A stretch of 38,398 nucleotides of DNA from Candidatus Buchananbacteria bacterium RIFCSPHIGHO2_02_FULL_56_16 (GCA_001817495.1 MHIL01000028.1:1302-39699), one strand, 5' to 3'; positions 17,282 through 26,646 are shown, counted from the stretch's first letter. Translations and numbers: made by a program. Notes: a model not told the origin generated them from the sequence alone.

Positions 17282-17671
17282 GGGGATGTTCAAAATCGAT
17301 AGGATGATGAGCCCACGCTACTCGAACCGAGCGTTGGTGATTTGCTCGTAAATCTCAACCGCCAATTCAATAAGTGCCAAATCACTTGTTGCTAAGGTCA
17401 AAGCTGCATTCAGCTCACTGACTTTAGTACCCGCTTTGGCCTAACAGCGCCAAAGCCATCAGCCCGGTGACGTCTCATAGCCGGTCCCTGGTGTCACCCA
17501 TGAGACTCGACGAACGGTCCGCCTCGCCCGCGCGTCTAAACTACCGAGGCTGCGGCTGGCAGCATCTTGTTGGTTTCTAACCTGCCGGCTCAAGACGTGA
17601 AACCAACTACGTTCGTAGCGGTAGTTTGAGCTCCATGCTAGACAGGGGTGTGAGTCCCCTCATCTCCACCA
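17282..17671 (+). ncRNA. ssrA: tmRNA; predicted tag (A)AKSLVAKVKAAFSSLTLVPALA at 17376-17444
   Basis: ggggatg/catctcc-acca acceptor with G3:U, T arm, resume context aataagtGCC, tag ending ALA*, adjacent to smpB. Confidence 0.93.
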
Positions 17672-17678
17672 CTCGACT

Positions 17679-17794
17679 CATTTCGAATTTTGAATTTTAA
17701 ATTTTGAATGAATTTCAAATGATTGAATGTTTCAAAGACTCAAGATTCAAACATTCAATATTGATTCAAAATTCGAAATTGAAAATTTAAAATT
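17679..17794. repeat. AT-rich 7-nt-periodic palindrome, family A
   Basis: catttcg aattttg aatttta aattttg ... caaaatt cgaaatt gaaaatt taaaatt. Confidence 0.9.
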
Positions 17795-17806
17795 AACTTT
17801 ACTCCC

Positions 17807-18358: not shown

Positions 18359-18370
18359 CATACATAGAAC

Positions 18371-18490
18371 TCAAAAAGTGCAAAGTGCAAAATTAAGGTA
18401 TTCCACCCCCTCCTTTCTGCGTTATCAATGAAATGCAGAAAGAAGGGGACCCCATAACTTTTAACTTTACACGTTAAATTTTAAACTTTC
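18371..18490. repeat. 7-nt-periodic hairpin with a nested GC-richer stem
   Basis: aaagtgc aaagtgc aaaatt ... aactttt aacttta; inner cccctcctttctgc/gcagaaagaagggg. Confidence 0.7.
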
Positions 18491-18491
18491 T

Positions 18492-18701
18492 ATGAAGCTC
18501 AAAACCCACAAAGCCACGGCGAAAAAGATTAAAATCACGAATACTAAGCGACGCAAAAACAAAAAGTTTCTGACGAAGCGGGCCGGCCAGGATCACTTCA
18601 ACGCTCGCGAGTCCGGTAACGTCACCCGCAGCAAGCGACGCCGGCAGACGCTCGACCCGACCAACGTCAAGACCGCCAAGCGGATGCTGCCTTATGCTTA
18701 A
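18492..18701 (+). CDS. rpmI: 50S ribosomal protein L35
   Basis: MKLKTHKATAKK; lies between infC and rplT. Confidence 0.93.
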   Translation: MKLKTHKATAKKIKITNTKRRKNKKFLTKRAGQDHFNARESGNVTRSKRRRQTLDPTNVKTAKRMLPYA

Positions 18702-18712
18702 CATGAGCTTTG

Positions 18713-18785
18713 TAGGAATTAGGAATTAGCTTGTAGCTTCTTAGAAATGGCATCTAAGAGACTACAACCCAATTCCTAATTCCTA
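18713..18785. repeat. 7-nt-periodic hairpin (family C related)
   Basis: taggaat taggaat tagcttg ... aattcct aattcct; shares agcttgtagcttcttag with the 23621 copy. Confidence 0.8.
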
Positions 18786-18800
18786 ACTCCTGAACTACCT

Positions 18801-19148
18801 ATGCCAAGAGTCAAACGAGGAAAAACCCACGTTGCCAAACGCAAGCGGCTGTTCAAGCAAGCCAAGGGCTTCCGCTGGGGCCGTAAGAACGTCATCCGTC
18901 TGGCCAAGACGGCCGTCATCAAAGCCGGCGTCCACGCCTATCGCGGCCGCAAGGGCAAGAAGCGAACCAACCGCGCCTTGTGGCAAATCCGCATCAACGC
19001 CGCAGTCCGGCCGCACGGCTTGAGCTATTCGAAGTTCATCAACCTGCTCAAGGTCAAAAAAATCGAGCTCGACCGCAAGGTCCTCTCCGAGTTAGCCGCC
19101 AAGCACCCGAAGGTGTTTGACGCGATTGTCAAAGAGGTCAAAAAATAA
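18801..19148 (+). CDS. rplT: 50S ribosomal protein L20
   Basis: MPRVKRG, RALWQIRINAA, LDRKVLSELA. Confidence 0.97.
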   Translation: MPRVKRGKTHVAKRKRLFKQAKGFRWGRKNVIRLAKTAVIKAGVHAYRGRKGKKRTNRALWQIRINAAVRPHGLSYSKFINLLKVKKIELDRKVLSELAAKHPKVFDAIVKEVKK

Positions 19149-19199
19149 TTTTTTTGGAATAGTAAAAAAATCAGAGCGGGGGCGTAGCTCAGCTGGTTA

Positions 19200-19313
19200 C
19201 CCCGCACCAAATCCGTAAAAAGCTTCAACAGGTTTTAATGGTTAACCGATACGGAGTCGATTTCGGCTTACTACTCTAAATCTAGGTTTTTTATTGATTT
19301 GGTGCGGGGCAGG
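19200..19313. mobile_element. MITE/REP-like insert with 14-bp terminal inverted repeats
   Basis: ccccgcaccaaatc (19200-19213) / gatttggtgcgggg (19296-19309) plus a 4-nt tail cagg; interrupts the tRNA D arm. Confidence 0.75.
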
Positions 19314-19356
19314 GAGCGTACATAACGCTTTGAAAATCTAGCAACAAAATCACAGC

Positions 19357-19430
19357 GGGGGCGTAGCTCAGTTGGTTAGAGCGTCTGCCTGTCACGCAGA
19401 AGGTCGTGGGTTCGAGCCCCATCGTCCCCG
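19357..19430 (+). tRNA. tRNA-Asp(GTC), intact, no encoded CCA
   Basis: gggggcg/cgtcccc acceptor, tctgc-ctGTCac-gcaga anticodon arm, TTCGA, G73. Confidence 0.93.
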
Positions 19431-19832
19431 CTGTGATTTTGTCGTGAAGCCCTTGCAGAGGCTGCGGGTTACCGCCAGAGGCGGACCCCGTCGAATGACC
19501 GAGCAAGTCCCGTCGGCTCCGTTTAGCACCTAATCAATTCCCACATCACACAAAAGCCTGGGGTTCGTCCGGTCATCCGACCGGACGCCCCGTCGAATGA
19601 CGGGGCGAGCCCCATCGTCCCCGCTGTGATTTTGTTGCTGAACGTCTGACTGCTTGCCCCGCACACCGACCCCGAGCCTGTCGAAAGGAAGGTGCTGCGG
19701 GGTCACGCAGATTTACCCTCCGAAACGTACGTGTAGGAGGGAGGTCGTGGGTTCTCCGCCACATTGTTTTAAGGGCGGACCCGCCTCTGGCGGGGAGCCC
19801 CATCGTCCCCGCCATTACAACAAAGCATCAAT

Positions 19833-19862
19833 AAAACCAGCCGCCTCAAAAGGGCGGTTTTG
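19833..19862 (+). terminator. Probable terminator after the tRNA-Asp locus
   Basis: gccgcc-tcaaaag-ggcggt stem followed by Ts. Confidence 0.55.
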
Positions 19863-19903
19863 TGATAGAATAAAAACAAGTGATATTATTGATATATTTA
19901 AAT

Positions 19904-24314: not shown

Positions 24315-26646
<2,332 letters not shown>

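Follow-up and report, generated by a model that had tools for sequence, protein, structure and literature searches.

The small dispersed repeats (SDR) of heterocystous cyanobacteria, said to have been described by Elhai and colleagues in 2008, are reportedly hairpin repeats of 21-27 nucleotides (nt) that often nest within themselves, lie at the centres of palindromes and were proposed to be the smallest mobile elements. REP and REPIN palindromes are associated with RAYT transposases (Y1, HUH) in the part of Bertels & Rainey 2011 (PMC3116915) drawn on here, and the double-hairpin elements of fungal and sponge mitochondria are characterized, in passages of PMC2800124, as GC-rich hairpins, single or double, whose stems are conserved while their loops vary; one of these passages, citing fungal work, has them tolerated in non-critical parts of RNA genes and not removed from the transcripts. 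Two kinds of GIY-YIG nuclease are also of relevance: SegB, a free-standing homing endonuclease of the tRNA gene cluster of phage T4 (sections of PMC2330249), and the Ssn proteins, single-domain nucleases that cut single-stranded DNA beside hairpin repeats (sections of PMC11893778). In the stretch of DNA analysed here, 38,398 nt from Candidatus Buchananbacteria bacterium RIFCSPHIGHO2_02_FULL_56_16 (GCA_001817495.1, MHIL01000028.1:1302-39699; hereafter the window), three T-loop-like sequences near a tRNA-Asp gene are split by very short abutting hairpins. We consider it probable that the split loops lie in dead pieces of aspartate tRNA genes and that their inserts, of 30-48 nt, belong to a family of paired mini-palindromes copied into tRNA-shaped loops.

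The host is an ultra-small groundwater bacterium of the Patescibacteria (candidate phyla radiation, CPR), whose closest named relatives by rplT are metagenome-assembled genomes (MAGs) labelled Candidatus Buchananbacteria (78%) and Kerfeldbacteria. Its genome (G000; 1,056,120 bases in 39 contigs, 55% G+C, 87.7% complete) holds the window as C28:1302-39699. Other C numbers denote further contigs of this genome, other G numbers the genomes of relatives and L numbers the loci of relatives; positions given without a contig are those of the window, on its plus strand.

Paired hairpins in split T-loops

The three T-loop-like sites (19471-19503, 19567-19606 and 19755-19794) are broken after TT or TTC by abutting hairpins with GC stems, as the sequence-only reading of this DNA had described. 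Each insert was folded as single-stranded DNA and its z-score taken against 200 shuffles. Of the two clean inserts, both framed by gggttc and gagcccc, that at 19567-19606 consists of two perfect 20-nt hairpins (-20.3 kcal/mol, z -6.5, equalled by 0/200 shuffles) and that at 19755-19794 of a 25-nt and a 15-nt hairpin (z -3.7, equalled by 1/200), each being predicted to form two separate abutting hairpins. The third insert, better read as 19471-19503, comprises 15 nt and a decayed 18-nt copy of the ccccgtcgaatgac hairpin, after which caagtcccgtcggctccg follows; it is decayed, folds with a z-score of only -2.25 (7/200 shuffles equal), and lies one base earlier than the other two, as had been noticed before, the split loop reading TT before the insert and CAAGT behind it. 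The reuse of modules noted at the outset was borne out by an exact search of the whole genome, which returned CCCCGTCGAATGAC three times, CCCGCCTCTGGCGGG four times and the first 20-mer twice, and the ccgccagaggcgg word occurs in both orientations within the window.

The three sites had been taken for three separate tRNAs. ARAGORN and Rfam accept a single tRNA downstream of infC-rpmI-rplT, the tRNA-Asp(GTC) at 19357-19431 (Rfam tRNA, 71.6 bits), whose T-loop is unbroken, and the split sites are 3' fragments of aspartate-type tRNA genes. All three can be assigned to the aspartate type because the acceptor end of the third site, cggctccg in 19464-19521, is also found in the dead tRNA-Asp copy of G016 (L008). 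The two clean inserts do both measure 40 bp, a match that is best regarded as coincidence since T-loop inserts elsewhere vary in length: inserts in the genome range from 30 to about 56 nt, those in T-loops including examples of 30, 33, 40, 44-48 and 55 nt.

The recurring unit is the hairpin pair in fixed order, which is probably copied as a whole. In all 12 pairs read in the genome, on the sense strand of the tRNA, the first hairpin has a stem of T[C/G]CGCC type and a purine-rich loop and the second a stem of C/TCCGCC type and a pyrimidine-rich loop. The second is approximately the reverse complement of the first (15/20 and 10/15 positions by hand count), no spacer separates them, and the pair is predicted to fold as two separate hairpins. 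An identical 30-mer is found in the T-loop of a lysine tRNA copy (C26:333-362) and in the anticodon loop of a glutamate tRNA piece (C4:21689-21718). The 40-mer of the window recurs with one change at C31:17455-17494, outside any tRNA, yet behind TTC, and a variant of it lies at C29:10554-10593.

Copies of the component hairpins exceed chance and are concentrated at tRNA loci. Perfect 15-nt hairpins with a GCC/GGC core number 51 in the genome versus 10.7 +/- 2.6 (maximum 17) in 20 dinucleotide-preserving shuffles, and those of the 16-nt GTC/GAC type 14 versus 3.95 +/- 2.3; 26 of the 51 15-nt hairpins lie within 400 nt of a tRNA gene, in zones that make up 2.2% of the genome. A looser class (GCC/GGC core with a loop of 8-24 nt) was dropped as too unspecific (261 real vs 151 shuffled). 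Perfect two-hairpin stacks between the TT(C) and (C)RA halves of a T-loop occur at nine places, eight of them of family type, versus two unrelated ones in the reversed genome, which served as control for both the stack and the deletion scans in G000. When imperfect stems are counted too, 17-19 T-loop-type sites can be read by eye, about 13 after TTC and four to five after TT. T-loop flanks around single hairpins were discarded as evidence; only the two-hairpin stacks are informative, because the single-hairpin flanks equal the reversed control (27 rows real vs 26 reversed).

These counts bear on the earlier proposal of a site-specific mechanism stacking hairpins into T-loops. The modules are indeed multi-copy and non-randomly placed; neither the junction between TTC and GA as a target nor the free stacking of single modules survived, the former because the same hairpins also break D-, anticodon and variable loops, each other's loops and AT-rich spacers. 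Family hairpins break anticodon loops at C4:21689, C26:788 and 19653-19702 and D-loops at C16:3365, C23:48591, C26:25058 and 19200-19309; one occupies a variable loop at 19712-19741, and others are nested inside one another's loops, as at C26:852-891. No flanking target duplication was seen at the tRNA sites examined. At C26:24884-25072, the D-loop of a dead tRNA houses a live tRNA-Thr(CGT), framed by CCCGCC and GGCGGG arms; the acceptor strands of the dead tRNA, GCCAACG and CGTTGGC, lie on either side.

Working genes appear to be spared. Only dead gene pieces carry inserts, contrary to the notion of working tRNAs as hosts, and short-word BLAST of the 36 ARAGORN calls against the genome revealed, at eight loci, partial tRNA copies beside an intact gene of matching identity. 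Family-type copies are located outside long open frames: in-frame insertion into proteins, raised as a possibility earlier, comes down to about a dozen hits of the 15-nt type in such frames, mostly not family-like, with 10.7 expected by chance in total. Nor did rRNA prove to be a host, the 16S gene (C29:1605-3182) being of normal length and without a family copy; the 23S gene is missing from the assembly. The tmRNA gene of the window (17282-17671, Rfam 90.7 bits), 390 nt long against a model of 374 positions, is likewise devoid of the hairpin family.

Archaeal tRNA introns occur at loop positions like those of the inserts, and the anticodon-loop insert of the window is placed between positions 34 and 35. 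It is nonetheless very improbable that the tRNA genes concerned work and that the inserts act as intervening sequences which are excised from their transcripts. In a deletion scan, every possible insert of 8-100 nt at every TT able to complete a T-arm was removed and the product submitted to ARAGORN (10,765 candidates in the genome, 9,611 in its reverse); this returned 14 rows at six places versus one in the control, none of them at a hairpin site, as five places were already intact tRNAs read again and the sixth an unrelated 66-nt case. Across the class, deletion of the 30-mer restored a tRNA at 0/30 sites in 30 genomes. At C26:276-390, where the 5' part is that of a lysine tRNA, ARAGORN calls nothing after deletion because the acceptor strand behind the insert fails to pair with that part. 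The tRNA-Lys(TTT) that ARAGORN reports at C26:276-350 was rejected as a miscall, its T-arm being made of the inserted hairpin and nothing being called once the insert is removed; dead pieces thus already mislead gene callers. The pieces lack their 5' halves or have non-matching acceptor strands and are adjacent to an intact gene of the same identity. Seven tRNA types seen in the loci of relatives are uncalled by ARAGORN in this genome, and no split form of them was found in it either. Finally, inserts of 30-48 nt are far below the size of self-splicing introns, no Rfam family other than tRNA exceeds threshold in the locus, and no intron family is among the matches to E = 1.

Spread and conservation among relatives

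The pairs are widespread in the class. In a sample of 301 genomes from 238 genera, with the pattern written backwards as control, the 30-nt pair with unspecified flanks was found in 118/301 genomes and 100/238 genera (control 0/301), and GTTC followed by the first hairpin in 85/301 genomes, with about 200 matches versus 35 in the control by hand count. In a survey of 29 foreign pairs, one per genome and picked regardless of flanks, 15 lay within 300 nt of a tRNA; seven had T-loop flanks, about seven sat in D-loops (gtagct before and caatgg behind, ctcagtt before and ggtta behind, and the like), one in an anticodon loop and about 14 in AT-rich spacers. The orientation of the pair was that of the neighbouring tRNA at 11/12 foreign sites.

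The dead tRNA-Asp copy of the window has counterparts among relatives. A copy with an insert between G34 and T35, mostly together with a variable-loop hairpin, is present in G000, G005, G007, G010, G012, G013 and G016; the position and the insert ends are the same in G005, G007, G010 and G016, the copy of G012 is without the 5' part of the anticodon-loop insert, and G013 shows the hairpin only. G012, G013 and G010 have homologues of the variable-loop hairpin in which the stem is cccgcc/ggcggg, and G007 has a longer form (cccgccctcc...ggaggg). The T-loop of the dead copy holds the homologous pair in G000 and G012 (L009), is empty in G007, G010 and G016, and carries another insert in G005. A plain tRNA-Asp without debris in the displayed stretch is seen in G018, G014, G003 and G004. 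We also note that in a distant relative, L115 (the named MAG contig CAZKKV010000008.1), positions 162-255 contain a tRNA-Gly(GCC) within the T-loop of a tRNA-like sequence (gcgggtt before it, cgattcccg behind it). A scan for split T-arms in 80 named rplT loci, with matches in 39 versus 47 in the reversed control, proved useless in AT-rich genomes and was abandoned except for the anecdotes L115 and L094.

Such conservation might suggest that the hairpin-expanded tRNA-Asp-like piece, transcribed behind the tRNA, itself functions as a structured RNA, be it a tRNA-like decoy or a signal for processing or termination, and that its hairpins are under selection. At least six genera of the family retain the piece in one position, behind rplT and tRNA-Asp; the orientation of the hairpin pairs relative to the tRNA is fixed, and the stems show compensatory changes (ccctcc/ggaggg vs cccgcc/ggcggg; TCCGCC/GGCGGA vs TGCGCC/GGCGCA; CCCGCC/GGCGGG vs CCAGCC/GGCTGG). 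We regard this explanation as decidedly unlikely: the content of the piece differs between genera, with the T-loop filled, empty or otherwise occupied and no variable-loop hairpin in G016; the 5' part is absent in G012 and the 3' part shortened in G013; and no Rfam family beyond tRNA itself reaches threshold. Moreover, perfect palindromes may persist in the absence of selection, and the live neighbour could have passed on the shared tRNA-like parts by gene conversion.

The nested tRNA-Asp locus, its possible origin and candidate enzymes

The split T-loops are part of a layered locus spanning 19178-19813, which can be read from the outside inwards. The outermost layer is a dead tRNA-Asp gene. 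Its 5' piece (19178-19199), which covers positions 1-22 and extends to the D-loop, is 95% identical to the live gene by blastn-short and is followed by a D-loop insert of 110 nt (19200-19309) with 13-nt terminal inverted repeats (19200-19212/19297-19309); in our own reading the D-arm picks up again as cagGGAGCG at 19310-19318. The remainder of the dead gene lies downstream of the live one. Its anticodon arm (GTCTGaCTG / TCACGCAGA; 19644-19711) carries between G34 and T35 an insert of 50 nt (19653-19702) whose ends are of CCCCGC/GCGGGG type, its variable loop holds the hairpin at 19712-19741 (ccctcc...ggaggg, supported by folding), and its T-arm and 3' end (19742-19813) consist of AGGTCGTGGGTTC, the double hairpin at 19755-19794 and GAGCCCCATCGTCCCCGCC, as read from the sequence, BLAST and the fold. 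Both the D-loop and the anticodon-loop insert have the word CCCCGCAC(C) at their ends (19200-19212, 19657-19664); it is also the stem of a recurrent terminator-like palindrome, ACCCCGCACC-TTTTGAAAAA-GGTGCGGGGT, found downstream of many genes (C4:4476-4510, C10:71315-71345, C17:3992-4020).

Within this shell, the live gene is bracketed by a 17-bp inverted repeat, of which the leader arm (19340-19356) matches 19623-19639 at 17/17 positions, better than it does the present trailer, with which 13 bp extend the acceptor stem directly. Thirteen perfect leader-trailer pairs prolong the acceptor stem in 2/35 tRNA genes (19340-19356/19432-19444 and C29:3982-3994/4068-4080), whereas 0/200 mismatched leader-trailer combinations reach six. 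The 3' end and trailer of the tRNA-Asp are duplicated (19414-19442 and 19607-19639), the downstream copy being the one that pairs best with the leader. From this duplication it would appear that a 193-nt element (19414-19606; body 19414-19566, complete with 19567-19606) was inserted between TTC and GA of the forerunner of the live gene; it opens with a replacement 3' end and a short trailer and closes in ggggttc and the double hairpin of 20 + 20 nt (19567-19606). Behind the latter follow the original 3' end (19607-19624) and the trailer arm (19623-19639, complementary to 19340-19356) of the now-live gene. Short-word BLAST matches 19607-19625 to positions 57-75 of the live tRNA, and 19796-19813 to positions 58-75, at 100% identity in both cases. 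The body of the element also includes the 3' end of another aspartate-type allele (gcgggtt...caagtcccgtcggctccg; 19464-19521), with its T-loop broken after TT by 19471-19503; an analogous site lies at C1:1430-1463 of the same genome. Upstream, the AT-rich spacers around infC, rpmI and rplT (17680-17800, 18360-18470, 18700-18790) consist of long inverted repeats, such as ttcgaattttgaatttt... with its mirror, and look like another repeat family of this genome.

Public sequencing runs were consulted for the same region. Contigs of two runs filed under different studies, one of which may be the source sample, reproduce 19100-19388 and 19578-19900 without any difference; in the four metagenome DNA runs no contig bridges 19388-19578. 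The depth of their contigs reaches 139-245 over 19559-19612; neighbouring bins have 0-13 and the remainder of the locus about 7-12. The 40-mer is therefore common to other members of the community, where it is preceded by ...AAATTC and followed by AAAATCC. Joints such as 19202>19364 were rejected as alleles, their sides measuring only 18-21 nt and arising from similarity between tRNA copies. The six RNA runs listed contained only about 6% of the sampled words each. Metagenome assemblies can mis-join repeats, and the public contigs are indeed interrupted between 19388 and 19578. It is nevertheless extremely improbable that the arrangement is due to chance similarity or to faulty assembly, given the difference-free flanks under two studies, the same architecture in independently assembled relatives and the far lower yields of the shuffled and reversed controls.

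We propose the following order of events. An old tRNA-Asp gene would have been opened by hairpin-ended insertions, one of which, bracketed by the 17-bp inverted repeat, would have brought the live replacement tRNA-Asp; the live gene may then have been struck in its T-loop by the 193-nt element supplying a new 3' end, as the duplicated 3' end and trailer suggest. The dead pieces might thus derive from cassettes that split a tRNA gene while delivering its replacement. The pairs, for their part, would be copied whole into single-stranded T-, D-, anticodon and variable loops, one another's loops and AT-rich spacers, and would survive only where they are harmless, in dead tRNA pieces, which could explain why live tRNA genes are free of them. 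The pairs may accordingly move; the substrate would be folded single-stranded DNA, for instance at the replication fork, and a hairpin-recognizing nuclease or transposase could be responsible. A bolder version, which we put forward tentatively, is that the double hairpins of 30-40 nt are nano-elements of autonomous appearance that rank with the smallest known mobile DNA. A hairpin-recognizing enzyme of Patescibacteria would place them, with strand specificity, into the loops of single-stranded tRNA-gene DNA folded as a cloverleaf, and together with the replacement-tRNA cassettes they would form an undescribed selfish system on tRNA genes; or else the expanded tRNA-like pieces would be kept for a function of their transcripts.

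Alternatively, the pairs could be the terminal structures of larger tRNA-seeking cassettes, left as solo ends after loss of the interior or recombination. The double hairpin forms the very end of the 193-nt element, where this adjoins the original 3' end, and CCCGCC/GGCGGG and CCCCGC/GCGGGG arms enclose loops ranging in size between 3 nt and over 100 nt: at C26:~24960-25057 they surround a whole live tRNA-Thr in the D-loop of a dead tRNA, in G012 an insert of 130 nt with such arms sits in a T-loop, and L115 presents a tRNA-Gly within the T-loop of another tRNA. We think this unlikely, as many pairs break continuous tRNA sequence with nothing else inserted (19742-19813; C4:21883 and C26:24884, both with perfectly matching T-stems), some 14 of the 29 foreign pairs stand in AT-rich spacers with no tRNA nearby, and the identical 30-mer occurs in two different kinds of loop.

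Two groups of enzymes were considered as possible agents. Of the seven matches to small GIY-YIG proteins in the genome, three adjoin tRNA loci with debris (C26:35-241, C26:410-610 and C1:1737-1940); they encode proteins of 78, 79 and 85 amino acids (aa; C26:35-271, C26:410-649 and C1:1704-1961; PF01541, 52.9-64 bits) that most resemble the solved UPF0213 proteins 1ywl and 1zg2. Homologues are present in 17/20 family genomes, G000 included, and 20 of 28 foreign GIY-YIG loci have a tRNA within 300 nt, 18 of them within 100 nt, usually 15-50 nt downstream on the same strand and of many identities. By analogy, this arrangement fits a nuclease-plus-tRNA cassette like that of SegB as portrayed in sections of PMC2330249. 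On C26, the double hairpin at 333-362 stands between two GIY-YIG genes, with further hairpins at 788-891; class-wide, only 4/29 double-hairpin loci hold such a gene. GIY-YIG genes are also found within inverted ends, of about 40 nt at C8:23960-24290 and C14:6140-6430 (tatgcccggtagtgaaacttcaaatggggtgaat...) and of about 19 nt at C5:21660-21950. Two other hairpin families abut Y1-transposase-type genes in a REP/RAYT-like manner at C34:10961-11110 and C15:33791-34260, namely CTCGGAGC...GCTCCGAG with GACAAGAGCCTCTGCTCTTGTC and AGCCCAC...GTGGGCT with AGTCCGC...GCGGACT. A reverse transcriptase or RNA route was discarded, no match to PF00078 being present in this 87.7% complete genome.

A number of observations weigh against the copying of pairs into tRNA-shaped loops. 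About half of the foreign pairs lie away from any tRNA. The left flanks of the 29 foreign pairs vary (TTC, TT, GCT, TTT, ATC, GCC and others), and no sequence target therefore explains their placement. Filled and empty sites are compared between genera only, so that loss is as possible as gain, and neither movement nor a strain allele with and without an insert was seen in the contigs of the four DNA runs. The dead copy and its inserts are kept, with compensatory stem changes, in at least six genera, which is not obviously how junk would be kept. As to the enzymes, GIY-YIG genes are not enriched at double hairpins (within 1.5 kb in 4/29 loci vs 6/80 comparison loci), so that this link was not upheld; the three Y1-transposase-type genes (PF01797; on C15, C34 and C31) are flanked by other hairpin families; and no enzyme is tied to the pairs. 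On balance, we still hold that a family of paired mini-palindromes copied into tRNA-shaped loops is probably what splits the T-loops of this locus.

Comparison with known systems

Small palindromic repeats are known, and a literature search, supplements excluded, found no publication on hairpins in the tRNA loops of Patescibacteria. A family of very small repeats that prefers tRNA-shaped DNA is thus apparently undescribed, as is one found in 100 or more genera of ultra-small bacteria. Mobile pairs would set a lower limit to the size of mobile DNA and account for the clutter of pseudo-tRNAs at the tRNA loci of these genomes. They would also imply an enzyme able to read single-stranded DNA in its folded state, and such an enzyme would have practical value beside the Ssn nucleases. 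The layered loci, in addition, preserve the history of how tRNA genes were replaced in organisms beyond the reach of cultivation.

Compared by description only, the pairs differ from cyanobacterial SDR in phylum and in sequence, and the latter are not known to prefer tRNA loops or to come in pairs. With REP and REPIN sequences, as far as these are covered in the parts of PMC3116915 used above, they share the short GC-rich palindromes in many copies outside genes and, approximately, the doublets of two inverted units, and the genome encodes three Y1-type proteins. Unlike them, the units described here abut without a spacer, measure 15-25 nt each and sit inside tRNA-derived loops, and no RAYT gene framed by copies of the pairs was found, the Y1 genes of this genome being flanked by other families. 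The miniature elements of IS200/IS605 type resemble the pairs in the absence of target duplication at tRNA sites and in the fixed orientation (11/12 foreign sites); those elements, however, insert just 3' of one fixed tetra- or pentanucleotide, and the left flanks of the 29 foreign pairs are varied. The mitochondrial elements, in the passages of PMC2800124 referred to, are similarly hairpins scattered in a small compact genome; they are organellar, lie in spacers and variable rRNA regions, bear no sequence relation to the pairs and are not mentioned there in connection with tRNA-derived loops.

On the side of the enzymes, the single-domain GIY-YIG proteins of this genome (78-85 aa, directly beside tRNA genes in 3/7 copies) are reminiscent of Ssn, at about 90-100 aa, and of SegB. 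They depart from Ssn in that the pairs are not enriched around GIY-YIG genes, and tRNA receives 0 mentions in the sections of PMC11893778 concerned. Unlike integrative elements at tRNA genes, the units measure 30-193 nt, 5' tRNA fragments lie upstream too, D- and anticodon loops are also struck, and extra hairpins stand exactly at the junction, where a tyrosine recombinase does not add them. The inserted DNA contains no recombinase gene, the 193-nt unit being too short to code for one; integrases were not searched for in the rest of the genome. Like integrative elements, the locus displays an intact tRNA with its 3' end directly repeated further downstream (19607-19624, 19795-19813), with the inserted DNA supplying a new 3' end and the junction lying in the T-loop.

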